DNA from: Clostridia bacterium
GTDB taxonomy: Bacteria > Bacillota > Clostridia > Oscillospirales > Acutalibacteraceae
Direction: 5' to 3'
Assembly: GCA_017472225.1 (NCBI GenBank)
Contig: JAFUQS010000062.1
Location: 10,825-74,824, forward strand
DNA length: 64,000 nucleotides
A program made the translations under genes and the position numbers. This document shows positions 1-13,318 of the stretch, piece by piece; within the stretch, counting starts at the first letter, position 1; every line of letters begins with the position of its first letter. A model generated the notes under the pieces. The model had not been told where the DNA came from. It was given only the letters and a program-made list of their open reading frames with translations, and did not search any database.

Positions 1-1873
1 GGAAGTAGCCCTTGAAAAGACCACAGGGTACTTTTTTGTCTGTTCTGACAACAATTTCACCTGTTTCACCAACAGGACAGGGATTACCGTCAAGGTCAAC
101 AATATCGATATCATATCCGGGAACAGGCTTACCCATTGCACCCGGCTTCGGAGTTGTTCCGATAAGGTTTCCGATTGTAAGGGTGGTCTCAGTCTGTCCG
201 AAGCCTTCCATAATCACAAGACCGGTTGATTTTTGGAACTGATAGAATACCTCGGGATTGAGCGCTTCACCGGCTGTTGTCGCATATCTGATTGATGAAA
301 GATCATACTTTGAAAGATCTTCCTTAATAAGCATTCTGTACATTGTGGGAGGTGCACAGAAGGTTGTGATGTTGTACTTGGCAAACATCGGTAGGATCTC
401 TGAAGCGTCAAATCTGTCAAAGTCATAAGTAAATACTGCACCTTCACTCATCCACTGACCGTAGAATTTACCCCACATTGCCTTACCCCAACCTGTGTCA
501 GAAATTGTAAGATGAAGGTCTGTCGGCTGAACTGAGTGCCAATATTTTGCTGTTACAAAATGACCGAGGGCATATTTATATGAGTGAGTGGCAATCTTGG
601 GATAACCTGTTGTGCCGGAGGTGAAGAACATAAGCATTTCATCATCACCGCAGGCTGTATCCTCTTCACGGTTGAAGATACTTCTGAAGAGCTTATACTC
701 TTCATCAAAGCTGTGCCAGCCTTCTCTTGAGCCGTTGACAATAATTTTAAGGCTGAGTCCGTCATAGCTTTCACTTGCAAGGTCAACCTGATTTGCAGTT
801 TCACCGTCTGAAGTACAAAGGATAGCCTTAACACCGGCAGCCTTGAAACGATACTCAAAATCGTGAACAACAAGCTGATTTGTTGCAGGGATAATAACAG
901 CACCAAGCTTGTGGAGAGCAAGAGCAGTAATCCAGAACTGATAGTGACGCTTGAGAACGAGCATAACTCTGTCGCCCTTGGTGATACCGAGGCTCTTGAA
1001 GTAGTTTGCAGCTCTTGCAGACTCTTTCTTCATATCCTTGAATGTGAAACGTCTTTCTGTCTTGTCGTTTGAAATATGAAGCATTGCAAGCTTATCGGGG
1101 TACTTATCCGCAACAGCATCAACAACATCGAAAGCAAAGTTGAATTTATCTTCATCCTTGAAGCTGATATCCTTGAGAATGCCGTTTTCATCCTCAGTGG
1201 TTTCAACAAACTTTTCAACAACAAGATGGTGCTGTGTTTTTGCAGCAACCTGAGCTTCGTTGACGATCTCCTGAACAGGAGCCTCATCGCCTGCAATAAC
1301 AACAGCGACGAATGTGCAGTCCTGACCGTCAACAGCAATCATGCCGTGAGGCGCAGAGCTCTTATAGTAGATACTGTCCCCTTCTTCAAGGATTTCTGTA
1401 TGCTGACCAATCTGAACCTTAAGCTTACCGGAAAGCACATAGTCAAATTCCTGACCGCTGTGAGTTGTTGTGCTGATAGGCTTGTTCTGAAGCTCTTCCT
1501 TATATTCGTATTTTGCAAGATAAGGTTCAGCAAGCTTATTTCTGAAAAGAAGAGCAAGGTGATTGATTTCAATGCCTTCATCATCTTCCTTTGAAGTGAT
1601 CTTACCCTGTCCCTTTCTTGTTACTGTATATGATGAAAGGTTACTGCTTCTGCCTTCAAGAAGGTCGGTTTTACCAATACCAAACACCTTTGCGCACTTA
1701 TGGATAAAAGAGAAGGGAAAATCATCTGCACCGGCTTCATATGAAACATATTCTTCAAGGCTGATTTCAACCTTTTCAGCCATCTCCTCCTGAGTATAGC
1801 CGGCAATTTCTCGCATTTCCTTAATTCGGAAAGCCACCTCTTTAAGTTCGTTGTTCATTTTGTTGAGTTCCAT
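1..1873 (-). CDS. Fusion protein: XRE-type HTH + cupin domain + AMP-forming acyl-CoA synthetase (medium-chain/ACS-like). The C-terminus lies beyond the left window edge.
   Basis: Absent from the ORF track because there is no stop codon in the window. Manual minus-strand translation from ATG 1873 (SD CAGGAGG at 1884-1890) showed no stop in every stretch checked codon by codon (about 1021-1873) and reads on to nt 1. It gives MELNKMNNELKEVAFRIKEMREIAGYTQEEMAEKVEISLEEYVSYEAG (HTH), HSGQEFDYVLSGKLKVQIGQHTEILEEGDSIYYKSSAPHGM (cupin), then FAFDVVDAVADKYPDKLAMLHISNDKTERRFTFKDM, MFFTSGTTGYPK and MEGFGQTETT (adenylation motifs). The ORF-track entries in 12-1806 are off-frame shadows. Confidence 0.85.
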   Translation of the reverse strand, partial: MELNKMNNELKEVAFRIKEMREIAGYTQEEMAEKVEISLEEYVSYEAGADDFPFSFIHKCAKVFGIGKTDLLEGRSSNLSSYTVTRKGQGKITSKEDDEGIEINHLALLFRNKLAEPYLAKYEYKEELQNKPISTTTHSGQEFDYVLSGKLKVQIGQHTEILEEGDSIYYKSSAPHGMIAVDGQDCTFVAVVIAGDEAPVQEIVNEAQVAAKTQHHLVVEKFVETTEDENGILKDISFKDEDKFNFAFDVVDAVADKYPDKLAMLHISNDKTERRFTFKDMKKESARAANYFKSLGITKGDRVMLVLKRHYQFWITALALHKLGAVIIPATNQLVVHDFEYRFKAAGVKAILCTSDGETANQVDLASESYDGLSLKIIVNGSREGWHSFDEEYKLFRSIFNREEDTACGDDEMLMFFTSGTTGYPKIATHSYKYALGHFVTAKYWHSVQPTDLHLTISDTGWGKAMWGKFYGQWMSEGAVFTYDFDRFDASEILPMFAKYNITTFCAPPTMYRMLIKEDLSKYDLSSIRYATTAGEALNPEVFYQFQKSTGLVIMEGFGQTETTLTIGNLIGTTPKPGAMGKPVPGYDIDIVDLDGNPCPVGETGEIVVRTDKKVPCGLFKGYF

Positions 1874-1910
1874 TTTACTTACGCCTCCTGACAAAAGAAA
1901 ATTTTTAAAC

Positions 1911-1945
1911 AAAAAACTCGTCTCAAAGAATAACTTTGAGACGAG
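1911..1945 (-). terminator. Intrinsic terminator of T-box leader 1
   Basis: Minus-sense CUCGUCUCAAAG-UUAUU-CUUUGAGACGAG (12 bp perfect stem, 1917-1945) followed by U6. Its 5' arm overlaps the T-box antiterminator region. Confidence 0.85.
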
Positions 1946-2190
1946 CAATAAACTAATGTTATACCCGCGGTACCACTCAAATTGCGATTCAAAATCGCCA
2001 CCTCAAGCTCCAACAAGCCCTATGCATTAACGCAGCAATCACGAAAGGTATCTACTTATCAAAGATGTTCGGACCTTCAGCTCAGAAGTGATAGGAAAAT
2101 GAAGGGTTGTTTATCGGCTTTCCAGCACCGCCGACTCTCTGTAAAACGCTGACTTCTTCCGTCTTCGTCATAGCTTTTAATATTTAATTT
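1911..2190 (-). promoter_or_regulatory. T-box riboswitch leader, specifier AUC (Ile)
   Basis: Minus-sense elements in order: K-turn/base AGCUAUGACGAAG...CUUCUGAGCU; AG bulge plus distal loop AGAGAGUCGGCGGUGCUGGAAAGCCGA; specifier loop U-AUC-A directly before the lower helix CUUC (codon at 2090-2092); Stem III GCGAUUUUGAAUCGC; T-box core AAUUUGAGUGGUACCGCGGG (1964-1984) with a UGGU bulge (pairs with discriminator A73); then the terminator. Confidence 0.8.
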
Positions 2191-2196
2191 GATGAC

Positions 2197-2225
2197 ATTT
2201 TAGCACTTTAAGAAATTAAAGTCAA
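2197..2225 (-). promoter_or_regulatory. Sigma-A type promoter for T-box leader 1
   Basis: Minus-sense TTGACT (2220-2225), 17 nt spacer, TAAAAT (2197-2202), preceded by TGc (extended -10). Confidence 0.65.
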
Positions 2226-2244
2226 TAGATTTTTCTCAATTTTT

Positions 2245-3048
2245 TCAGATTTTTTCAATTGAAAACAGCTTCATAGCATTTTTATAAAGGATTTTCTCCT
2301 CCTCTTCCTGTGTAAGCTTCATGGATTTGAAGGCTTTGTATTCTTCTTCATGGCTCCACATAGGAAAATCAGTTCCGAAAACAACCTTATCTGCGCCGTA
2401 AAGTCTGATGAGCTCTCTTACCTCACAGGGCGGAAGCCAATTAAAGGTTGAGCAGCAGTCAACATAAAAGTTTTCATAGTCATGCAGCTTTTCAGCCGCC
2501 TCTTTCCAGCAGGACCAACCGCCGAAATGAGCACCGATAACAGTAAGATTTTTATGCTTTTCCAAAACATTTTTCACTCTGTCCGGATTTGAAAAATCAT
2601 ACCTGATATCTCCCGTATGAAGAAGCACGGGAAAAACACCCTCGCACAAACTGTATATTCTGTCGCACTTAGGGTCATCAATGCAGAATTTTTGAAAATC
2701 AGCATGTAATTTGATGCCCTTGAGACCAAGCTCTTTTATTTTTTCAATGTCTTTTTCAATCTCATAGGAATCAGGGTGCAGCGTGCCAAGACCGGTCAAA
2801 AGTCCGTTTGATTTTTTCACGGTGTCAGCAATGAAGGTGTTTATGGAGTTCACCTGATGAGGAGTTGTTGCAACTGAAAAGACCACATAATGCTTAACTC
2901 CGATTTTATTACCGCTTTCTATAAGTGAAGAATATCTTCCGTCATGGTACATTGCCAAATCATAAAAATCTGCAATCCCCCGCACTGCCCTATCTGCAAT
3001 TTTATCAGGATAAATATGGCAGTGACAGTCAATTATCGGATAATTCAT
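2245..3048 (-). CDS. Amidohydrolase-2 family (ACMSD-like metal-dependent hydrolase/decarboxylase) protein
   Basis: 267 aa. N-terminal IIDCHCHIYP (HxH metal motif), KLHADF, LLHTGD and FGTDFPMW are typical of the PF04909-type TIM-barrel amidohydrolases. Confidence 0.7.
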   Translation of the reverse strand: MNYPIIDCHCHIYPDKIADRAVRGIADFYDLAMYHDGRYSSLIESGNKIGVKHYVVFSVATTPHQVNSINTFIADTVKKSNGLLTGLGTLHPDSYEIEKDIEKIKELGLKGIKLHADFQKFCIDDPKCDRIYSLCEGVFPVLLHTGDIRYDFSNPDRVKNVLEKHKNLTVIGAHFGGWSCWKEAAEKLHDYENFYVDCCSTFNWLPPCEVRELIRLYGADKVVFGTDFPMWSHEEEYKAFKSMKLTQEEEEKILYKNAMKLFSIEKI

Positions 3049-3083
3049 AAATGTTCATCTCTTTAATTTAAATTGAATTTTTT

Positions 3084-3111
3084 CAGGTGCACCGAAAAAT
3101 CGGAGCACCTG
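3084..3111. other. GC-rich intercistronic stem-loop between the ligase fusion and the amidohydrolase
   Basis: CAGGTGC-A-CCGA-AAAA-TCGG-A-GCACCTG. Flanking T4/A4 extend the stem. A U-tract follows it only in the plus sense (AAAATTTTTT), not in the sense of the operon. Confidence 0.5.
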
Positions 3112-3119
3112 AAAATTTT

Positions 3120-5639
3120 TTATGCAGTTTCAACTGAATTTGCTTTCTGAAGGCCGTATTTTTCAATAGCCTCTTCACGCATTTTATATTTAAGAATTTT
3201 ACCGGCAACATTCATCGGGAAGGAATCAACGAAATCAACATATCTGGGAACCTTATGCTTAGCCATATGATCTCTTACATACTGCTTCATTTCATCCCCG
3301 GTCATGCTTTCGCCTTCCTTAAGAATAATGCAAGCAGCAATTTCCTCACCATACTGCTCATCGGGTACACCGATAACCTGAACGTCGCTTACCTTCGGAT
3401 GTGTATAGATGAATTCTTCGATTTCCTTCGGGTAAATATTTTCACCACCACGGATAATCATATCCTTGAGTCTGCCTGTAATACGGTAGTTACCGTCCTC
3501 TGTTTTGCAGGCAAGGTCACCTGTATGAAGCCAACCTTCCTTATCAATTGCGGAAGCTGTTGCCTTGGGCATTTTGTAATAGCCCTTCATAACATTATAT
3601 CCTCGTGCAACGAATTCGCCCGTTACACCAACAGGAAGGTCCTCACCTGTTTCAGGATCAACTATTTTACATTCAATTTCGGGAAGTGCCCTGCCAACAG
3701 TACTTACTCTGACCTCGAGGGAATCATCGGTTGAACTCATGGTACAGCCGGGAGAAGCCTCTGTCTGACCGTAAACAATCGTGATTTCATCCATGTGCAT
3801 CTTGTCAACAACATCCTTCATAACTGAAATCGGACAAGGTGAACCAGCCATAATACCTGTTCTCATGTGTGAGAAGTCAGTTTTCGGGAAATCCGGATGC
3901 TCAAGCATTGCAATGAACATGGTGGGAACACCGTGGAAGGCAGTAATCTTCTCCTGATTGATACAAGCAAGAGACGGCTTCGGTGTGAAATACGGAAGCG
4001 GATAAAGTGTTACACCATGAGTCATTGAAGCGGTCATTGCAAGAACCATACCGAAGCAATGGAACATAGGCACCTGAATCATCATTCTGTCAGCAGTGGA
4101 AAGGTCCATTCTGTCACCAATGCACTTGCCGTTATTAACAACATTGTAGTGAGTGAGCATAACACCCTTGGGGAAGCCTGTTGTTCCCGATGTATACTGC
4201 ATATTACAAACATCGTTCGGGTCAACATTGGCAGCAATTCTGTATACCTCTTCAACGGGAACATTTTCGCTTCTTTCAATCGCTTCTTCCCATGTAAGGC
4301 AGCCTTTTTTCTTGAAACCGACCGTAATAACATTTCTGAGGAACGGAAGACGGCGACAATGGAGAGGCTGTCCCGCTTTTGTTGTTTCAAGCTCAGGACA
4401 AAGCTCTCCGATAATATCGGCATAATGTGAATCACGATAGCCTTCAACAAGAATAAGGGTGTGAGTATCAGATTGTCTGAGGAGATATTCAAGCTCATGA
4501 ATTTTATAAGCTGTGTTAACAGTTACAAGAACAGCACCGATTTTTGTTGCAGCCCAGAAGGCAATATACCATTGCGGAATATTCGTTGCCCATACTGCAA
4601 CATGACTGCCCGGCTTCACACCAAGAGCAAGAAAAGCACGGCAACATTCGTCAACATCATCACGGAACTGGGCGTATGTTCTTGTGTAATCAAGTGTTGT
4701 ATATTTAAAAGCATACTGGTCAGGGAATTCCTCAACCATCTTATCAAGCACCTGAGAGAAGGTCTTTTCAATAAGAGCTTCTTTTTTCCAGACATAATTA
4801 CCTGTGCCTCTGTTGTTGGTGTAAAGATGGCTCTTTTTTCTTGATGGAGCCTGAAACTTTTGCATGAACTGAACAAAATGCGCAAAAATAACATCAATTT
4901 CGGTGAGATCAGGCATCCAATCAGGATTCCATTCAAGAGAAATAAAGCCACTGTAATTTATAGATGAAAGTGCATTGATTACAATGTCAACCGGCACCTC
5001 ACCTTCACCGATAAGGCAATACTCACGCTCACCGTCAATTACTGCTGAGTCCTTAAGATGAACATGCTTGATGTAAGCACCAAGATTTGTGATAGTAGCC
5101 TCAGTATCCTCCTGTTGTTCACAGAATGTATGATAAACATCCCAAAGTGCCGCAATTGAATCACTTGCGAACTCCATAAGAACATCACGCAATGCAGCTG
5201 TGTCAGCAAACATACCGCAGGTTTCAATAAGAATTGTTACATTCTTTTCAGCAGCATAAGAAACAATTTCAGAAAGACAAGCAACTACATTCTCTCTTGC
5301 ATTTTCATCGTTGCCCGAAGCGTAAACTCTTACATAAGGAACACGTATTCCTGCTGCAAAATCAATGTTACGGATAATATACTTTGCATTTTCTTCAACG
5401 CTCTTTGAGGAAATATCTGTACTGATATCAACACAAGGCACAGTAATTCCGGCATCGTTAAGCTTACGCATTGTTGCGGCTGAATTATATTTGTGGAAGG
5501 GACCGTTTTTGTAGGAAAGCTCAGAATCCAGAACATTATGAAGTTCTATACCCTTATAGCCGATTTCTTCTGCAAGAGCTGTGAAATCCTGCCATGAATA
5601 TTCCTTCCAACCGTTAATTGAAAAAGAAAGCTTCATCAT
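3120..5639 (-). CDS. Fusion protein: xylose-isomerase-like TIM barrel (sugar phosphate isomerase/epimerase, AP_endonuc_2-type) + AMP-dependent acyl-CoA synthetase/ligase
   Basis: 839 aa. Residues about 1-265 read GYKGIELH, ILIETCG, WDVYH, HVHLKD, ISLEW (TIM-barrel metal-site pattern). Residues about 280-839 read MQYTSGTTGFPKGVMLTH, YGQTEASP, WLHTGDL, GRLKDMIIRGGENIYPKEIE, GKILK (adenylate-forming superfamily). The SD GAGGAGG lies inside the last codons of the upstream gene, with a 3 nt gap, so the two are translationally coupled. Confidence 0.85.
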   Translation of the reverse strand: MMKLSFSINGWKEYSWQDFTALAEEIGYKGIELHNVLDSELSYKNGPFHKYNSAATMRKLNDAGITVPCVDISTDISSKSVEENAKYIIRNIDFAAGIRVPYVRVYASGNDENARENVVACLSEIVSYAAEKNVTILIETCGMFADTAALRDVLMEFASDSIAALWDVYHTFCEQQEDTEATITNLGAYIKHVHLKDSAVIDGEREYCLIGEGEVPVDIVINALSSINYSGFISLEWNPDWMPDLTEIDVIFAHFVQFMQKFQAPSRKKSHLYTNNRGTGNYVWKKEALIEKTFSQVLDKMVEEFPDQYAFKYTTLDYTRTYAQFRDDVDECCRAFLALGVKPGSHVAVWATNIPQWYIAFWAATKIGAVLVTVNTAYKIHELEYLLRQSDTHTLILVEGYRDSHYADIIGELCPELETTKAGQPLHCRRLPFLRNVITVGFKKKGCLTWEEAIERSENVPVEEVYRIAANVDPNDVCNMQYTSGTTGFPKGVMLTHYNVVNNGKCIGDRMDLSTADRMMIQVPMFHCFGMVLAMTASMTHGVTLYPLPYFTPKPSLACINQEKITAFHGVPTMFIAMLEHPDFPKTDFSHMRTGIMAGSPCPISVMKDVVDKMHMDEITIVYGQTEASPGCTMSSTDDSLEVRVSTVGRALPEIECKIVDPETGEDLPVGVTGEFVARGYNVMKGYYKMPKATASAIDKEGWLHTGDLACKTEDGNYRITGRLKDMIIRGGENIYPKEIEEFIYTHPKVSDVQVIGVPDEQYGEEIAACIILKEGESMTGDEMKQYVRDHMAKHKVPRYVDFVDSFPMNVAGKILKYKMREEAIEKYGLQKANSVETA

Positions 5640-7118: not shown

Positions 7119-7156
7119 AAAAAAATCCTTGAAATTACAGAACGTAACTTCAAGGA
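7119..7156 (-). terminator. Intrinsic terminator of T-box leader 2
   Basis: Minus-sense UCCUUGAAGUUAC-GUUCU-GUAAUUUCAAGGA (13 bp, one GU pair) followed by U7. Confidence 0.85.
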
Positions 7157-7395
7157 CGAATAAAATCCGTGGTACCACCTTGTTTACCGCAATATTACGG
7201 TCACTCTTCAAGACTCTGACAAGTCTTTAGCCATGATAACGGGGCATCCGTGACTGCCTACACAACAAATTGCCTTCAACAGTCCTGCTCGGAAATGAGA
7301 CTGAATAATCATCTCGTATCGGTTCGCACCAACCACCGACTCTCTTAAACCAAAGAATAAAAATTCATAATTTCGTCAACGCATTTGTGATATTG
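7119..7395 (-). promoter_or_regulatory. T-box riboswitch leader, specifier CUC (Leu)
   Basis: Minus-sense elements: base UGCGUUGACGAAA...UUUCCGAGCA (K-turn-like GA motif); AG bulge/distal loop AGAGAGUCGGUGGUUGGUGCGAACCGA; specifier loop GU-CUC-A directly before the lower helix UUUC (codon 7297-7299); Stem II GACUG...CAGUC; Stem III AAGACUUGUCAGAGUCUU; T-box core AAACAAGGUGGUACCACGG (7165-7186) with a UGGU bulge; then the terminator. Confidence 0.8.
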
Positions 7396-7430: not shown

Positions 7431-7460
7431 CACTTTTACACTTTAAAATTCAAGAATTTC

Positions 7461-8249: not shown

Positions 8250-9563
8250 ATGAAAAAACAAAAGCGCAAGAAAAAAGGTTGTCTTATTGGTCTCAGTGTT
8301 ATCGCAATTATGCTCGTTGCAGTAATTATTGCCGCTTCGGTTCTGCTTCCCGGAATTGACACAGGCGGATACCGTTACATCGCAATCAATGCAGGAACAT
8401 CCTTCCTGAAAAAACAATCGAGCAGTGAAGTTGACGCACTGCTTCAAAAAACAGGCGGCTTCATAAAGGGTGTATGCCACCCGAATGAAAATTATGAGCA
8501 AATCAAGGACGCCAACATCGAATGGGTGAGATTTGATCTTACTTCACTTCCTTATGACGAAAACGGCAACCTTACACAGGGATATAAAGACTTCAAGGAG
8601 CGTGCCAAGGGTTATGCCGACAACGGAATGAAGGTTATGTGCGTCACCCAATATCCTGAAGTGTACATAGAAGCGGGACTCGACCCGAGAGAGGCTGCAA
8701 GCAAAACAAAAATTCAGGAATATGCCCGTTTCATTGCTGAGGATCTTCAGGGAATCGTTCACGCTTTTCAGATTACAAACGAAATGGGTATTGAGCATTT
8801 CACTCTTCCGCTGACTCTCGATGAAGCTGCAGAATATATCGGCATACAGCTTGAAGCCATGTACGATGTCAGAGGTGATATAATCATCGGCTTCAACTGT
8901 GCCGGTGGCGCAATTTATACACTCGTTGAAAAAATGCAGCCCTACCTTGAATACTGTGACTATGTTGCCCTTGATCTTTATCTCGGTTGCTTTGAAAACA
9001 TGTTCAAGGACATATGGGTATATAACGGTATTCTCAGATATCTGTGGAGCTACACCGGAAAGCCCATTATTCTTAATGAATTCGGCTACATGGGATACGG
9101 TGATGTTAAAAGCGATGAGCAAAAGCAGGAAATTCTGCGTACCTACGGTGTTGAAAGTGAAGAAGAAGCAAGAAAGGATATATTCGCTTTTATCGATAAT
9201 CTGCCCAAGGATTTCAAGGAGCATATGCTGAGTCTTGAATATTCAGATGAAAAAGAACTTGCAGACAAGCTGTTTGACACAGAACTTGCCAATCATCTAT
9301 ACAGAGAAATTCAGGGTGGTTATCAATTAACGGACTACCGCCATACTCCTGAGGATCAGGCAAGATTCTTCACAGATACCATTGCGGGAATAAGAGAACT
9401 CGATTTCCTTTGCGGTGCAATTGTTTATTGCTACAGCGACAGTGATGCCTGTTATATATGCGGACAGGAGGATTGCCCGATTGAAACCGGATGGGGGCTT
9501 GTGGATTTACACGGTGAACCAAAGCCGGCATACTATGCCGTTCAGAAAGCATTTGAAAACTGA
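8250..9563 (+). CDS. Membrane-anchored glycoside-hydrolase-like protein (clan GH-A TIM-barrel pattern)
   Basis: 437 aa. One N-terminal TM helix. Candidate acid/base ITNEMG and nucleophile ILNEFGY are spaced as in GH5-like enzymes. The family is not resolved by eye. Confidence 0.4.
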   Translation: MKKQKRKKKGCLIGLSVIAIMLVAVIIAASVLLPGIDTGGYRYIAINAGTSFLKKQSSSEVDALLQKTGGFIKGVCHPNENYEQIKDANIEWVRFDLTSLPYDENGNLTQGYKDFKERAKGYADNGMKVMCVTQYPEVYIEAGLDPREAASKTKIQEYARFIAEDLQGIVHAFQITNEMGIEHFTLPLTLDEAAEYIGIQLEAMYDVRGDIIIGFNCAGGAIYTLVEKMQPYLEYCDYVALDLYLGCFENMFKDIWVYNGILRYLWSYTGKPIILNEFGYMGYGDVKSDEQKQEILRTYGVESEEEARKDIFAFIDNLPKDFKEHMLSLEYSDEKELADKLFDTELANHLYREIQGGYQLTDYRHTPEDQARFFTDTIAGIRELDFLCGAIVYCYSDSDACYICGQEDCPIETGWGLVDLHGEPKPAYYAVQKAFEN

Positions 9564-9725: not shown

Positions 9726-10166
9726 TTATTTGATGAATTTCTGACTTTCTTTCACTGCGAGTTCATCACATCTTTCATTTTCCGGGTGGCCGGCATGACC
9801 CTTTATCCATTCCATCACAACATCGTGCTTTTCAATCAGTTCAAGAAGCTCAGCCCAAAGTTCAGGATTTAAAGCCGGCTTTTTATCCTTCTTTTTCCAG
9901 TTATTAGCCCGCCATGATTGTGCCCATCCTAAGGTTATGCCGTTAAAAACATATTGTGAATCAGTAATTATTTTCACCTTACAAGGCTCCTTCAGTGCCT
10001 TGAGACCTTCAATGACAGCCGTCAGCTCCATACGATGGTTTGTTGTATGCTCCTCCCCGCCGGAAAGCTCTTTGCGTTTTCCCTTATAATCAAGAATTGT
10101 TCCCCAGCCTCCGGGTCCGGGATTACCTGAGCAGGCACCATCTGAATATACAGTAACTTCTTTCAT
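9726..10166 (-). CDS. rnhA: Ribonuclease HI
   Basis: 146 aa. VYSDGACSGNPGPGGWG, TNHRMEL, ITDSQY, WIKGHAGHPENERCDELA. Confidence 0.93.
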   Translation of the reverse strand: MKEVTVYSDGACSGNPGPGGWGTILDYKGKRKELSGGEEHTTNHRMELTAVIEGLKALKEPCKVKIITDSQYVFNGITLGWAQSWRANNWKKKDKKPALNPELWAELLELIEKHDVVMEWIKGHAGHPENERCDELAVKESQKFIK

Positions 10167-10363
10167 GAAATATCTCCTATAAAAAAACGATTTGAATTAT
10201 TTTATCACATCCCTGATTTTGTTTCAAGATGAAAAAAACATAACTTTAAAGCAAATCTTAATAAAAGATGAAATTATATAAAGTGCTTGAAGATTTATTT
10301 ATTTTATTGTATTATATTATGTATGTGCAAACACTGACTTAAGTTACAGAAAGAAGGCTGAAA

Positions 10364-13318
10364 ATGTTAAAGCAAAAAAGAAGTCTGTGGGATGAATATA
10401 AATACATAATCATTTCATTCCTCGCCTCAGCGGTCACAATGCTTGTGATTTATATGTGCAACAGTATGATCCCTCTCGGTGATAACACTATTTTAAGAAT
10501 GGACCTTTATCATCAGTACGGTCCTTTGTTTGCTGAGCTTTATGAAAGGATAACAGAAGGAGACAGCTTGTTTTATTCATGGGCTTCAGGCCTCGGAAGC
10601 TGCTTCCTCGGAAATTACTTCAACTATCTGTCAAGTCCTGTCGGCGCTATTGTGGTGTTTTTCGGTCACAAAAATGTAACCGAAGCAATCGCAGCCATGA
10701 TTCTCATAAAAGCAGCTCTTTCATCCGCCACCTTCACATATTATCTGAAAAAATCACTTCACAGTCAGTCATACGCTTCAAGTGCTTTCGGTGTTATGTA
10801 TGCTTTCTGCGGTTATATGCTTGCTTACTATTGGAATGTTATGTGGCTTGATGCAATGGTTCTTCTGCCGATAGTTCTTCTCGGAATTGAAAGAATCATT
10901 GATAACGGTAAAATGAGAACCTTCGTAACAGGTCTTGCGCTTTCGATGTTTTCAAATTACTATATGTCATATATGCTCTGCATTTTTTCTGTATCATATT
11001 TCTTCTATTATTACTTCAAGGATTATAGCTTCAGCTCTGTTGTGAGTGAAGAATATGCTGAAGCGAATAAAGGCTTTTCATTTAAAAACAACAGATTTTT
11101 CAGAAGCGGTGTTATTTTCACTGTTGCCGCATTAACTGCTGCGGGACTTATGGCTGTTGTACTTCTTCCCGTTTATAAAATTCTTCAGTCATGCTCTGCA
11201 ACATCAGGTACCTTCCCCTCAGATCCCGAATCCTACTTCACCTTCTTTGACTTTTTCGCAAACCACCTTGCAAGTCTCACAACAACTATAAGGTCAAGCG
11301 GTGACGATGTTCTTCCGAATGTTTACTGCGGAGTTCTTACACTTGTACTCGCTCCCCTTTTCTTCTTCACCAAATCTATATCAAAAAAAGAAAAGGTCGT
11401 AACTATCGGACTTCTTGTTGTTTTATACTTCAGCTTCAATGTAAATATTTTCAACTACATCTGGCACGGTATGCACTTCCCTAACGATCTGCCCTACCGT
11501 CAATCGTTCATTTATTCATTTGTGCTTTTGGTTATGGCATACAAAACCTTCATGCGGCTTAATGAATTCAAGGCTCGTCATTTTGGTGTTGTGGGCGTTG
11601 CTCTCATCTGCTTCACAATGCTTGTTGAAGAGCTCACATCAAAAAATGTTACAACCGGAACAGTTATTCTCACTCTTATCCTCATTGTGCTTTATGTTGT
11701 AGTTCTTGCAGTATTCATGGACAAGAGATATCAGTCCGTTTCCGTTGCAGCTCTTCTTATCGTCTGCGTTTGCAGTGAAGCTGTTATGTGTGACACCAGT
11801 TCTCTTAATATTTCCATTTCAAAAGACTCCTATGTATCCGATTATGACGATTTCTCCACAATAAAGGATACACTTGACACAATTGAAAACGATGATTTTT
11901 ATCGTATGGAGCTTACAGACCTGAGAACAAGAATGGATCCCTCATGGTACTATTACAACGGTGCCTCCGTTTTCTCATCGATGGCATATGAAAGGCTTTC
12001 AAATCTTCAGGATGACTTAGGTATGATGAGCAACCGAATAAACAGCTACACATATAATCCGCAGACTCCCGTTTATAACATGATGTTTTCGATGAAATAT
12101 ATCGTGAACAACTATACACCCGATGCATTGGCAGCATCACCGAATTATTCACAGGTAGCAACCCATTCAAAGTATACGGCCTACAAAAACAATTACTATC
12201 TCCCGATTGCATATCTTGTTGACAGTGCCGCTTCTACCTGGGGAACAGATGAGTATATTTCCAATTGGAAGACGAACACAAACAGTGACCCGTTTGCACT
12301 TCAGGGCGATTATTTTAACCTCGCCACAGGCGGTCTCGGAAGTCCCTTCCAAAAGCTCGAGCCTGAATACATCACATATTCAAATGTCAACTCCTTCAGC
12401 GAAAGCATGAGTTCATCAAGCTTCTATTATGACAAAACAACAGATGACCTTGACGGCTCTGCAACTGTTTATCTCTCTCCCGAAACTGATACGAATGTAT
12501 ACATCTATTTTGATATTACCGGAGCAGATTCAAAGGACATCACAATCAACTCTCCTCTCGGCACAATGACCCATAATGCAAATCAGGATTGTGTCCTTGA
12601 CCTTGGATATTACAACGCAGGCGATACAATCTCCATAAACTTCCCCTTTGAAGAAAACAGTGGTACACTGAAATTCTTCGCATATACTCTTAATCAGGAA
12701 ATCATGAACCTGGGTTACAAGGTTCTCAGCGAACAGCAAATGCTCACAGAGGAATTTGAAGACACCTACATCAAAGGAAGAATTACAGCAGAAAAAGATT
12801 GCCTGCTTTATACTTCAATCCCCTATGATGAAGGTTGGAAGGTTTATATTGACGGCACACAGGTAGCTGAGGAAAAAATTATCAAGGTTGGTGAAGCACT
12901 TCTCGGCATTATGGTTGAAGAAGGAAATCACACCGTTGAATTTAAATTTGAAGTTCCTTCTCTTATGATAGGTGCTGTAATTACAATTATTACACTGCTT
13001 TTAATTGCAGCTTATTACCTGATTAAAAAGTTGAAAAAAGGCAGTTCAAGAACTGAAATACGGTATGCAGAAATTGACAATAGCTGGACTGATGAGGTTC
13101 TTATGCCTGAGCCGGTTGTTTCTGAAGCTTCATCAGAAGAAGCCGGACCTTCCCTTCAAGCATCCAACGCTTACGCTGACAGCTATCCGAAGCGTGAATT
13201 GATTGAACCGAAGTCTGCAGTTATGAAGGAGATTTTTTCACCAAGACCGACTCAGATTGAGGTTATTGAAATTGAGGAAGAAATTTCAGACAGTAACAAC
13301 AATAATATAACAGAATAA
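10364..13318 (+). CDS. YfhO-family polytopic membrane protein (putative glycosyltransferase)
   Basis: 984 aa. More than 10 N-terminal TM segments, a large extracytoplasmic domain, a C-terminal TM helix and a disordered tail. The length and the start (DLYHQYGPLFAEL...) fit YfhO family members as I recall them. Confidence 0.6.
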   Translation: MLKQKRSLWDEYKYIIISFLASAVTMLVIYMCNSMIPLGDNTILRMDLYHQYGPLFAELYERITEGDSLFYSWASGLGSCFLGNYFNYLSSPVGAIVVFFGHKNVTEAIAAMILIKAALSSATFTYYLKKSLHSQSYASSAFGVMYAFCGYMLAYYWNVMWLDAMVLLPIVLLGIERIIDNGKMRTFVTGLALSMFSNYYMSYMLCIFSVSYFFYYYFKDYSFSSVVSEEYAEANKGFSFKNNRFFRSGVIFTVAALTAAGLMAVVLLPVYKILQSCSATSGTFPSDPESYFTFFDFFANHLASLTTTIRSSGDDVLPNVYCGVLTLVLAPLFFFTKSISKKEKVVTIGLLVVLYFSFNVNIFNYIWHGMHFPNDLPYRQSFIYSFVLLVMAYKTFMRLNEFKARHFGVVGVALICFTMLVEELTSKNVTTGTVILTLILIVLYVVVLAVFMDKRYQSVSVAALLIVCVCSEAVMCDTSSLNISISKDSYVSDYDDFSTIKDTLDTIENDDFYRMELTDLRTRMDPSWYYYNGASVFSSMAYERLSNLQDDLGMMSNRINSYTYNPQTPVYNMMFSMKYIVNNYTPDALAASPNYSQVATHSKYTAYKNNYYLPIAYLVDSAASTWGTDEYISNWKTNTNSDPFALQGDYFNLATGGLGSPFQKLEPEYITYSNVNSFSESMSSSSFYYDKTTDDLDGSATVYLSPETDTNVYIYFDITGADSKDITINSPLGTMTHNANQDCVLDLGYYNAGDTISINFPFEENSGTLKFFAYTLNQEIMNLGYKVLSEQQMLTEEFEDTYIKGRITAEKDCLLYTSIPYDEGWKVYIDGTQVAEEKIIKVGEALLGIMVEEGNHTVEFKFEVPSLMIGAVITIITLLLIAAYYLIKKLKKGSSRTEIRYAEIDNSWTDEVLMPEPVVSEASSEEAGPSLQASNAYADSYPKRELIEPKSAVMKEIFSPRPTQIEVIEIEEEISDSNNNNITE

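Follow-up and report, generated by a model that had tools for sequence, protein, structure and literature searches.

Why should an enzyme that activates carboxylic acids begin with the helix-turn-helix (HTH) and cupin domains of a transcription factor, and why should its gene stand behind an isoleucine T-box? The question arises at one end of the 64,000-nucleotide stretch of clostridial DNA analyzed here (the window; features are collected in Table 1), for which a sequence-only reading had proposed a DNA-binding trigger enzyme in the manner of BirA that combines three regulatory inputs: tRNA-Ile charging, a cupin ligand, and enzyme turnover. We lean toward a different answer and consider it reasonably probable that the gene, HCA (for HTH-cupin-acyl-CoA synthetase), encodes the ATP-consuming entry enzyme of an operon for isoleucine salvage by reductive carboxylation and that its N-terminal module is a sensing partner dedicated to the ligase.

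Table 1. Positions of the features discussed, in window coordinates
Feature	Position	Strand	Basis
Sigma-70-type promoter: TTGACT, 17 nt, TG-n-TAAAAT	2197..2225	-	Sequence; aligned promoters conserved across loci
Palindrome ACTTTAA-N4-TTAAAGT in promoter spacer, candidate operator	2205..2222	.	Closest clade only
T-box leader RNA, tRNA-Ile specific	1934..2180	-	RF00230, 89.7 bits, E 3.7e-20
Specifier codon AUC (Ile), conserved purine A2089 next	2090..2092	-	Alignment to Rfam specifier-loop columns
Intrinsic terminator of Ile leader: 13-bp stem, 5-nt loop, U-run	1911..1946	-	Fold z −3.96
HCA ribosome-binding site AGGAGG, 9 nt before ATG	1883..1888	-	Sequence
HCA, 5' 1872 nt (aa 1-624 of 758)	2..1873	-	Open frame; runs past window edge
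HCA XRE-type HTH fold (aa 14-74), strongly acidic	1652..1834	-	Pfam, AF2, charge comparison
HCA cupin beta-barrel (aa 118-193), invariant H138/E142/H176	1295..1522	-	Pfam Cupin_2, invariant columns, AF2 strands
HCA cupin-ligase linker (aa 194-245), variable, low confidence	1139..1294	-	pLDDT, conservation
HCA AMP-binding (ANL) ligase domain, MacS type (aa 252-624 inside window)	2..1120	-	Pfam PF00501, 3ETC match
Amidohydrolase_2 gene, last of Leu T-box unit upstream of HCA	2245..3048	-	Pfam, E 4e-33
839-aa fusion, xylose-isomerase-like TIM barrel and acyl-CoA ligase	3120..5639	-	Pfam AP_endonuc_2, AMP-binding, AMP-binding_C
leuA-like gene, 470 aa as called on L001	5643..7055	-	Pfam HMGL-like and LeuA_dimer
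Leu T-box leader, specifier CUC at 7299-7297	7149..7388	-	RF00230, 121 bits; sequence
Promoter of Leu T-box unit	7430-7402	-	Sequence

The fusion is genuine and conserved

The minus strand is open from an ATG at 1873-1871 to the window edge (positions 1-1873, 624 codons, zero stops), as the sequence-only reading had stated, and that reading was also right that the gene is absent from the list of open reading frames, from which it was lost because its frame runs off the end of the window. The locus matches contig L001 at 100% identity, and HCA occupies positions 10001-12277 there; the full-length protein (P0001, 758 aa, 100% identical) has an AMP-binding_C domain in addition, and no frameshift separates the regulator part from the enzyme. 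All three domains that had been claimed for a single protein are matched by Pfam, namely, an HTH (HTH_19 at aa 16-74, E 2e-8; HTH_3, E 5e-7; and also HTH_31), a cupin (Cupin_2 at aa 136-191, E 1e-12), and an adenylate-forming synthetase (AMP-binding, PF00501, at aa 252-624, E 8e-66 for the 624-aa fragment), and the motifs SGTTGYPK and GFGQTETT are present in the translation. Cupin, AMP-binding, and AMP-binding_C domains occur together in all of the 120 best homologues (752-758 aa), most of which also have an HTH match. Given an identical full-length protein and an architecture kept throughout the best 120 homologues, the fusion is genuine and conserved and is no frameshift artefact.

In the AF2 model, the HTH consists of five helices (pLDDT 87-98) and the cupin strands (aa 118-193) exceed a pLDDT of 90, while the linker, which is the least conserved segment of HCA, falls below 50 at residues 195-212. 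The full-length model is of moderate confidence only (pLDDT 74, pTM 0.63), and it shows no dependable contact of the N-terminal module with the ligase.

An isoleucine T-box as the probable RNA-level control of the operon

The claim of an Ile T-box ahead of the synthetase gene was borne out by a match to RF00230 that spans the full model (positions 1-219 of 219) and by the AUC specifier. The leader was missed in the whole-window scan because its score lies just below the cutoff, about 3 bits short of the gathering score of 93. Of 77 orthologous leaders of sufficient length for this assessment, 60 have ATC at the matching place; scores against RF00230 are 66-89 bits in orthologous leaders, and a T-box motif is found upstream of essentially every HCA orthologue. 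The T-box sequence, whose UGGN element is for pairing with the tRNA 3' end, GAGUGGUACCGCG, lies at about 1978-1966, and the T-box core at this locus reads GAGUGGUACC, which is unmatched by a strict T-box pattern and matched by a relaxed one. Specifier calls rest on this second pattern together with the alignment column, because a still looser automatic caller assigned wrong codons to some of the Ile leaders. The terminator hairpin lies at 1946-1916, and its 5' arm doubles as the 3' strand in the antiterminator helix of the Rfam model, making the two structures mutually exclusive. A T-box input to the operon is well supported by these sequence features and their conservation, and, by the canonical mechanism, uncharged tRNA-Ile would pair with the AUC specifier and stabilize the antiterminator, leading to read-through.

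In its Stem I specifier loop, its T-box, and its competing antiterminator and terminator, the leader is like the branched-chain T-boxes of ileS and the ilv-leu operons, from which it differs in its targets: an acid-CoA ligase, a ferredoxin oxidoreductase, and ilvE, a set that corresponds to a route of volatile-fatty-acid salvage. The main text of two T-box regulon surveys makes no mention of a CoA ligase or an oxidoreductase as a T-box target. A second unit, behind a Leu T-box, lies upstream in the window; the product of its leuA-like gene scores at best 319 bits against 2-isopropylmalate synthase models, all under the curated cutoffs, and the TIM barrel-ligase fusion scores 717 bits against NCBIfam PRK12583, below the cutoff of 832.

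Gene content points to a probable isoleucine salvage by reductive carboxylation

On L001, the order is promoter, Ile T-box, HCA, P-loop NTPase, vorD-A-B-C, and ilvE, the vor genes and ilvE lying downstream in the same operon as HCA and beyond the window. The genes that follow the ligase encode a 220-aa P-loop protein and then products with Fer4, POR_N/PFOR_II, TPP_enzyme_C, POR gamma, and Aminotran_4 assignments. The vorD-A-B-C genes correspond to a four-subunit 2-ketoisovalerate-type 2-oxoacid:ferredoxin oxidoreductase, whose alpha subunit (VorB model) scores 543 bits against NF005507 (cutoff, 399), and IlvE scores 508 bits against NF009897 (cutoff, 307). Comparison of the P-loop protein with the PDB gave weak matches only, in the Walker A region, to the SRP receptor, MinD, and Fe-S carrier proteins. 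The gene order is kept in practically all of the 80 genome loci with contigs that reach far enough, and the carriers are metagenome-assembled genomes of gut and rumen Oscillospirales. The operon therefore co-encodes an acid-activating enzyme, a branched 2-oxoacid:ferredoxin oxidoreductase, and a branched-chain aminotransferase, and the last two supply a metabolic reason for the isoleucine link that had been suspected from the leader.

The closest solved relative of the ligase is PDB 3ETC, the MacS enzyme of Methanosarcina acetivorans (630 bits over 536 residues, the match beginning at residue 221 of the 758-aa protein). Residues T418-K426, G557-E562, Y639-D643, and K752 are invariant in 61 homologues; we take these to be motifs A3 (TSGTTGYPK), A5 (GFGQTE), and A7 (YHTGD) and the A10 catalytic lysine, respectively. 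By alignment to 3ETC, G559 replaces the pocket tryptophan of Acs, and W445 retains the equivalent of MacS Trp259. HCA thus resembles MacS in the glycine that stands in for the Acs pocket tryptophan, in the alternative pocket tryptophan, and in all ANL core motifs, and it differs in that MacS is archaeal and lacks the HTH-cupin extension; to our knowledge, no T-box or oxidoreductase context has been associated with MacS. The comparison identifies the enzyme, as judged from its sequence, as a MacS-type branched- or medium-chain ligase, in agreement with the medium-chain/ACS-type synthetase first proposed, and a plain acetyl-CoA synthetase was not borne out. The best NCBIfam model for the ligase is MbcS (NF047394), a 2-methylbutyrate/isobutyrate-CoA ligase of Staphylococcus aureus; the two appear to share a branched short-chain substrate class, but the 624-aa fragment scores 258 bits, far under the equivalog cutoff of 850, and by this measure HCA is related to MbcS and not an equivalog.

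The sequence-only reading had mentioned that archaeal medium-chain synthetases are reported to favor 2-methylbutyrate, and for MacS this is correct: the M. acetivorans enzyme, for which the roles of the pocket glycine and Trp259 have been described, prefers 2-methylbutyrate, adenylates propionate too, and carries out the full reaction best with 2-methylbutyrate (PMC10455477). A second indication of substrate comes from related genomes with two tandem copies of HCA, one behind an Ile (ATC) T-box and the other behind a Val (GTA or GTC) T-box, a pairing also found in a distant locus (L085). The sole class-specific residue of the ligase is at position 463, which is glycine in the Ile class and alanine in the Val class and which corresponds, by motif alignment, to Val310 of the Acs acyl pocket; the contrast fits a predicted larger pocket for a C5 acid and a smaller one for a C4 acid. 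Together with homology and the Ile T-box, it leads us to infer that HCA probably prefers 2-methylbutyrate. In the two-paralogue genomes, the oxidoreductase and ilvE genes sit behind the Val T-box, so that starvation for isoleucine only would require read-through or another copy of these genes.

The same ligase could in principle activate propionate, with propionyl-CoA carboxylated to 2-ketobutyrate and isoleucine then made by the ordinary ilv pathway. Propionate is among the acids that MacS adenylates, and anaerobes are known to make isoleucine from propionate through ligation to CoA and a carboxylation that depends on ferredoxin (PMC7476758 and references therein, including Monticello 1984). 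We nevertheless regard this as highly unlikely: ilvE and a VorB-type oxidoreductase share the operon, the full MacS reaction is best with the C5 acid, and Gly463 in the Ile class against Ala463 in the Val class implies an acyl group larger than isobutyrate, the opposite of propionate.

On the preferred reading, the ligase would convert 2-methylbutyrate to 2-methylbutyryl-CoA, the oxidoreductase with reduced ferredoxin would carboxylate this to 2-keto-3-methylvalerate, and IlvE would transaminate the product to isoleucine. An AMP-forming ligase and induction under starvation fit synthesis and not breakdown; the catabolic direction, from isoleucine to 2-methylbutyrate, was ruled out on the grounds that the ligase is AMP forming and that uncharged tRNA would be the inducer of the operon. 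Substrate, reaction direction, and effector of HCA are all predictions, and such a salvage pathway is very likely given the gene content, the homology to a MacS that prefers 2-methylbutyrate, and the classical physiology of anaerobes.

According to Allison, Robinson, and Bryant (1960s-80s) and Monticello (1984), rumen and gut anaerobes reportedly form branched-chain amino acids from branched volatile fatty acids by reductive carboxylation. The operon holds exactly the three activities needed, and its carriers are gut and rumen Oscillospirales; the classical work was physiological, whereas what is described here is at the level of genes, a T-box-gated operon with specifier-matched ligase paralogues. 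A gene-level assignment of this kind was not found in the searchable literature, and literature searches on the HCA fusion, on a T-box-controlled ketoisovalerate oxidoreductase, and on genes for the carboxylation of branched-chain volatile fatty acids returned nothing relevant.

The N-terminal module: ligase partner or DNA reader

The proposal of a trigger enzyme or autorepressor holds that the HTH recognizes an operator in the promoter of this operon, and perhaps one in that of the Leu operon, and is released by the cupin ligand or by ligase turnover. It draws on the significant Pfam matches to HTH_19 and HTH_3, on the homology of the module to annotated XRE regulators, and on an architecture shared with the XRE-cupin factors PuuR and SutR, both proven DNA binders, which have an N-terminal HTH followed by a cupin barrel, a length of about 185 aa (as in free-standing relatives of the module), and H, E, and H at aligned positions; a regulator-then-enzyme order is, moreover, common in autoregulated operons. 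The family of HCA differs from PuuR and SutR in having an HTH that is acidic in and after the recognition helix. As a sequence proxy for compatibility with DNA binding, net charge amounts to −6 or −7 both in the fusions and in the free-standing homologues, against +2 in PuuR and +4 in SutR; helix 3, the recognition helix of HCA, reads SLEEYVSYE, with two adjacent glutamates, and the loop after it reads GADD, with two adjacent aspartates, where canonical XRE proteins are basic. By this proxy, the HTH surface of HCA is not neutral or basic and its recognition helix is not of the polar or basic kind, which makes DNA binding doubtful, although a net-negative HTH may still bind DNA through a local patch. 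Proteins that join HTH-like and cupin domains without binding DNA, such as HppE, HEPD, and MPnS, also speak against a DNA-reading role.

The best candidate for an operator is the 18-bp palindrome in the promoter spacer, for which a symmetric double change (ACTTCA/TGAAGT) in L006 and L010 and a copy next to the Leu promoter that departs from it at two positions (7432-7449) speak in favor. It is present in 13 of 32 close promoters, whereas 43 of 44 distant Ile promoters and 42 of 43 Val promoters lack it; its symmetry derives in part from the −35 and extended −10 consensus; and the number of matches in the window with two or fewer mismatches, 2 against an expected 0.76, is within what chance would give. 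As a family-wide operator, the palindrome was ruled out across the 119 promoters.

Genomic placement bears on the same issue. The module is 32-47% identical to free-standing HTH-cupin proteins of about 185 aa, and in 6 of 6 cases these are encoded directly before a MacS-type ligase gene, from which it follows that the fusion joins a conserved pair; PuuR and SutR differ in this respect too, the HCA-type module being always directly before, or fused to, such a ligase. In L093 and L095, the free-standing homologue follows the oxidoreductase genes (with an 8-nt overlap in L093) and is thus an internal gene of the operon, a placement more in keeping with a partner of the ligase than with a repressor of the classical kind. 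Otherwise, the search for N-terminal homologues yielded for the most part pieces of the same fusions truncated at contig ends, and the PDB sequence search with the module gave weak matches only (ImmR and RemF). Within each of the Ile and Val classes the module is conserved, and 13 of the 14 class-specific residues fall in it, so that it has diverged along with the Ile/Val specialization.

With BirA, PutA, and NadR, HCA has in common a regulator-type fold and an enzyme in one polypeptide, adenylate forming in the case of BirA, but DNA binding has been shown for those proteins and is disfavored by sequence features here, where the transcriptional signal already comes from an RNA element. On the features examined, the analogy to BirA was thus not supported, given the acidic HTH, a candidate operator confined to the closest clade, and homologues that are internal operon genes before the ligase, and we hold the autorepressor reading to be unlikely; that HCA is a true trigger enzyme, its acidic module binding the spacer palindrome or another site until released by the cupin ligand or ligase turnover, seems to us quite unlikely. 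Were it so, one operon would integrate tRNA-Ile charging at the RNA level, a metabolite through the cupin, and the state of the enzyme at the DNA level, HCA would be the first acyl-CoA synthetase to serve as a transcription factor, and its operon would be the first under a T-box to encode its own enzyme-repressor.

The cupin might alternatively be catalytic, a metal-dependent domain acting on the substrate or product of the ligase in a bifunctional protein like HppE, HEPD, or MPnS, which combine HTH-like and cupin architecture without binding DNA. H138, E142, and H176 are invariant, the genes for the module and the ligase are closely coupled, and the top Foldseek matches of the module are HppE, HEPD, MPnS, and Psf4, but at TM-scores of only about 0.33 and 12-18% identity. 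The H/E/H positions are also found in the regulator PuuR, so the triad is not diagnostic of catalysis; the conversion of 2-methylbutyrate or isobutyrate to an amino acid needs no extra chemical step; and the precedent enzymes all use O2, whereas the carriers are gut anaerobes. A catalytic role is accordingly very improbable.

We take the N-terminal module to be a sensor or partner that serves the ligase specifically; its unfused counterpart is the small protein encoded elsewhere directly before MacS-type ligases. The cupin triad would be the binding site of a small-molecule effector, perhaps with a metal in between, and the module would tune ligase activity, giving feedback at the enzyme level beside the T-box at the RNA level, with the HTH fold acting as a scaffold or interaction surface and not as a conventional DNA reader. 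As for the idea of three inputs, that of the T-box stands on sequence and conservation, a cupin ligand is plausible, and an input through DNA binding is doubtful.

Significance

Many fibre degraders of the rumen and gut need or benefit from branched volatile fatty acids, and physiological work has recognized since the 1960s that branched-chain amino acids can be made by reductive carboxylation. The locus offers a compact gene set for this route, comprising a ligase, a P-loop protein, a ferredoxin oxidoreductase, and IlvE, in which the T-box specifier (Ile, Val, or Leu) provides an annotation key to the acid that each ligase paralogue likely serves, of use in annotating hundreds of uncultured Oscillospirales genomes and in work on isoacid feed supplements. 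The acidic HTH-cupin protein, which some lineages encode separately and which is here part of the ligase polypeptide, emerges as a conserved companion of MacS-type enzymes and may represent a transcription-factor fold re-used as an enzyme regulator.

The ligase gene and its leader

A minus-strand frame free of stop codons for 624 codons, by translation, runs from the ATG at 1873-1871 to the window edge; the gene had been missing from the ORF listing because ORFs running off the window end were left out. An identical protein of 758 aa from public metagenomes, P0001, matches the window protein across all 624 residues and carries AMP-binding_C at the C terminus, and the 120 best homologues, of 752 to 758 aa and 71 to 100% identity, have the cupin, AMP-binding, and AMP-binding_C domains without exception (120/120), with a Pfam HTH match in most but not all of them. 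Regulator and enzyme therefore form one polypeptide, as the sequence-only reading had proposed, and a frameshift between them is ruled out. Database names for these proteins are confined to "AMP-binding protein," "cupin domain-containing protein," or "acetyl-CoA synthetase." The Ile T-box placed upstream of the gene in that reading is borne out by an RF00230 match directly upstream with an AUC specifier; with a score just below the gathering threshold, this leader escaped the scan of the whole window, in which the other T-box was the sole one listed.

Features of the window ligase gene, its product, and its leader
Feature	Position	Strand	Basis or remark
T-box leader RF00230	1934-2180	-	89.7 bits, E 3.7e-20; 3 bits below gathering threshold
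Specifier AUC then A (Ile)	2092-2089	-	T-box leader match
Promoter TTGACT, 17 nt, TG-n-TAAAAT	2225-2197	-	Sequence
Palindrome ACTTTAA-N4-TTAAAGT	2205-2222		In promoter spacer; candidate operator
Terminator, 13-bp hairpin and U-run	1946-1916	-	5' arm is also the 3' strand of the antiterminator
Ribosome-binding site AGGAGG	Nine bases before ATG 1873-1871	-	Sequence
HTH_19/HTH_3	aa 16-74	-	Pfam
Cupin_2	aa 136-191	-	Pfam
AMP-binding	aa 252-624	-	Pfam

Ligase type and operon content

In MacS, the Methanosarcina acetivorans ligase, a Gly is found where Acs has its acetate-pocket Trp, an alternative Trp, Trp259, is critical, and 2-methylbutyrate is the preferred substrate (PMC10455477), so that the preference given in the sequence-only reading for archaeal medium-chain synthetases is true of this enzyme. 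The window protein has G559 as the equivalent of the pocket Gly and W445 as that of Trp259; neither position varies, the core ANL motifs are likewise invariant, and the protein is thus not a plain acetyl-CoA synthetase. The top NCBIfam model for the ligase is that of MbcS, the 2-methylbutyrate/isobutyrate ligase of S. aureus, but the score of 258 bits against a cutoff of 850 makes the window protein a relative and not an equivalog.

Beyond the window edge, on the contig carrying the locus at 100% identity (L001), the ligase gene is followed by genes for a 220-aa P-loop NTPase and a small ferredoxin-type delta subunit and then by those for the alpha (POR_N/PFOR_II), beta (TPP_enzyme_C), and gamma (POR) subunits of an oxidoreductase and a class-IV aminotransferase. 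Both the alpha subunit, at 543 bits against the curated VorB model (cutoff, 399), and the aminotransferase, at 508 bits against that of IlvE (cutoff, 307), score above the threshold. The order ligase, P-loop, vorDABC, ilvE is kept in practically all of the 80 recovered genome loci with long enough contigs; all are MAGs from the gut of animals or humans, with the labels Acutalibacteraceae, Oscillospiraceae, Ruminococcaceae, or plain Clostridia, and relatives are encoded in 413 stretches of a species-representative genome collection. The P-loop NTPase gene (L001 12392-13054, just past the window edge; Walker A, GHYGSGKT) always lies between the ligase gene and vorD in fused-type operons (L002 to L081) and is missing from L093 and L095, where HTH-cupin and ligase are separate genes. 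Its product had no NCBIfam match, and the Pfam matches to CbiA and ParA/NUBPL were weak; the oxidoreductase might depend on it as an Fe-S or maturation factor.

The conversion of 2-methylbutyrate to isoleucine by reductive carboxylation takes three activities, and they are the very ones encoded here: ligase, branched 2-oxoacid:ferredoxin oxidoreductase, and IlvE. Its physiology in anaerobes of the rumen and gut is known from the work of Allison, Robinson, and Bryant; Monticello 1984 is among the references cited by PMC7476758. An AMP-forming ligase, together with the predicted induction by uncharged tRNA, argues for the synthetic direction.

The neighboring Leu T-box operon contains a second ligase fusion of 839 aa, in which a xylose-isomerase-like TIM barrel is joined to an acyl-CoA ligase (window 3120-5639, minus strand; also at L085, a distant two-paralogue locus, 667-3150); it is PRK12583-like, at 717 bits, below the cutoff. 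Its gene is flanked by a leuA-like gene and an Amidohydro_2 gene; in many loci all three, or leuA and the ligase gene at the least, are again found beside HTH-cupin-ligase genes, and this set may be the counterpart for leucine (isovalerate). Another ORF, of 437 aa, is located between upp and an RNase H gene (window 8250-9563, plus strand); it was also called as a gene on L001 and had no Pfam match in the window or on L001.

Ile and Val paralogues

Genomes whose ligase is approximately 70 to 73% identical to the window protein carry two tandem full-length HTH-cupin-ligase genes, each with its own promoter and T-box. The specifier of the first copy was ATC (Ile) by a strict pattern in 60 of the 77 leaders long enough to assess, and that of the second was GTA (Val), read from the alignment column, in 40 of 46 leaders, L085 included. 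Because the distant L085 pair, with an N-terminal identity of about 40%, keeps the same layout, with specifiers ATC and GTC, the T-box does travel with the fusion, a matter that the sequence-only reading had raised as a question. The Val-class leader of one locus, L036, has GGA at the specifier position (approximately 2500-2520) versus GTA in 40 others, which may reflect either a true change of specifier or a mistake in sequencing or assembly. A typical Oscillospirales operon at L056 stands in a record labelled Bacteroidaceae bacterium, probably through a binning or labelling error. At the two-paralogue loci L033 to L081, the oxidoreductase genes and ilvE are located downstream of the Val T-box terminator, and under starvation for Ile only, read-through of the Val leader or a second copy of the oxidoreductase genes would seem to be needed.

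Fourteen positions are at least 90% conserved within each class and different between the Ile and Val classes, 13 of them in the N-terminal HTH, linker, and cupin region and one in the ligase, G463 in the Ile class versus A463 in the Val class. In our own alignment of the GW-x-x motif, position 463 matches the Acs pocket residue Val310, and a smaller residue for a C5 acid and a larger one for a C4 acid would fit 2-methylbutyrate versus isobutyrate. Propionate as the Ile-linked substrate is highly improbable, as the residue of the Ile class is the smaller of the two.

The N-terminal HTH-cupin module

A profile-free search with residues 1 to 245 found 2124 relatives among 1.8 billion representative proteins, including many free-standing proteins of about 185 aa (32 to 47% identity). 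In all six free-standing cases looked up, a MacS-type ligase gene was found directly 3' of the HTH-cupin gene after a gap of 12 to 73 nt: three full-length or long downstream ligases are 50 to 53% identical to the window ligase, in alignments that start at window residues ~217 to 242, exactly where the ligase part begins; the gene downstream of P0178 aligned over a 45-residue piece only (40% identity, E 9e-10); and those downstream of P0240 and P0250 were called ligases from their Pfam AMP-binding matches. The window fusion thus joins a conserved gene pair. At L093 and L095, vorD-A-B-C come first, followed by the HTH-cupin gene and then the ligase gene; at L093, the HTH-cupin gene begins 8 nt before the gene ahead of it ends, and the upstream intergenic regions at both loci are too short for a T-box; the pair itself is tied to the ferredoxin oxidoreductase across distant lineages. 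L082, another split-type locus, has a perfect palindrome with 9-bp arms, AATTGTATA-N9-TATACAATT (4970-5000), in the region from which a GntR gene and the HTH-cupin/ligase pair diverge; since this candidate resembles a GntR-type operator, the pair may be under the control of another regulator.

The sequence-only reading regarded the fusion as a candidate trigger enzyme with a DNA-binding HTH. HTH, cupin, and ligase do reside in one protein, but the net charge of the 64-residue HTH segment is −6 in the window protein and in one paralogue of the Val class, and two homologues that stand free have −7 and −6, versus +2 in PuuR and +4 in SutR, E. coli XRE-cupin proteins that RefSeq annotates as DNA-binding regulators. 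Mean charges over the first 75 residues are −5.5, −6.0, and −5.9 for 79 Ile-class fusions, 40 Val-class fusions, and 57 free-standing representatives, respectively; the recognition helix of the window protein reads S-L-E-E-Y-V-S-Y-E versus T-H-S-A-I-S-T-I-E in PuuR, and the loop after it is G-A-D-D. As a proxy taken from sequence, this acidity weighs against an HTH that reads an operator in the conventional way. The spacer palindrome, whose symmetry comes partly from the −35 and extended −10 elements, is clade restricted: in 13 of 32 close loci the spacer has a palindrome stronger than 95% of shuffles (two of the 13 have the symmetric variant ACTTCA/TGAAGT), and the same test picks out a single promoter among the 44 distant Ile promoters and a single one among the 43 Val promoters. 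Within the window, two matches with two or fewer mismatches were found versus 0.76 expected, a number not above chance. A trigger enzyme or autorepressor is, in our judgment, unlikely. A copy with two mismatches adjoins the Leu-operon promoter; this block, TTAAAG-N4-AAAGTG (7432-7449), abuts the −35 element (7430-7425), is kept in the closest clade (L001, L003 to L012, and L030), and resembles the right half of the Ile spacer palindrome; two possible readings are a protein site common to both promoters and a mere UP-like AT-rich element.

The AF2 model of the module consists of five helices and a cupin barrel (mean pLDDT, 83); the full-length model is moderate (pLDDT, 74; pTM, 0.63), with linker 195-212 disordered, and module-ligase contacts are not readable from it. 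Foldseek matched HppE, HEPD, MPnS, and Psf4, all of them two-domain enzymes, as well as 1Y9Q, an uncharacterised regulator, with TM-scores of ~0.33, a likeness therefore of architecture only. The HTH-like domain of these four enzymes is not known to bind DNA, a precedent by which an HTH-like fold beside a cupin need not do so. A catalytic cupin might be sought in the invariant residues H138, E142, and H176, but the same positions align in PuuR, which points to a ligand or metal site and not necessarily to catalysis, and we consider such a role very doubtful.

Implications for isoleucine synthesis

Every part of the system is of a known kind (T-box, ANL ligase, VOR-type oxidoreductase, IlvE, and XRE-cupin fold); in the literature searched, we found no description of T-box control of a volatile-fatty-acid salvage operon, of ligase paralogues matched to T-box specifiers, or of a dedicated acidic HTH-cupin partner of MacS-type ligases, the fused form included. 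From the observed RNA elements, gene content, conserved synteny, correspondence of specifiers with paralogues, and HTH-cupin/ligase pairing, the following picture may be drawn. Uncharged tRNA-Ile would cause read-through of the leader, the ligase would make 2-methylbutyryl-CoA, and the oxidoreductase and IlvE would turn this into isoleucine, while the N-terminal module would sense a small molecule, be it the 2-keto acid or amino-acid product or the acid substrate, and tune the ATP-consuming first step, in the manner of regulatory domains appended to other first-committed enzymes. The pathway stands on much firmer ground than the module's role. Taken as a whole, an operon induced by isoleucine starvation for the conversion of 2-methylbutyrate to isoleucine, in which the N-terminal module would be a small-molecule sensor tuning the ligase, is the account that we somewhat favor.
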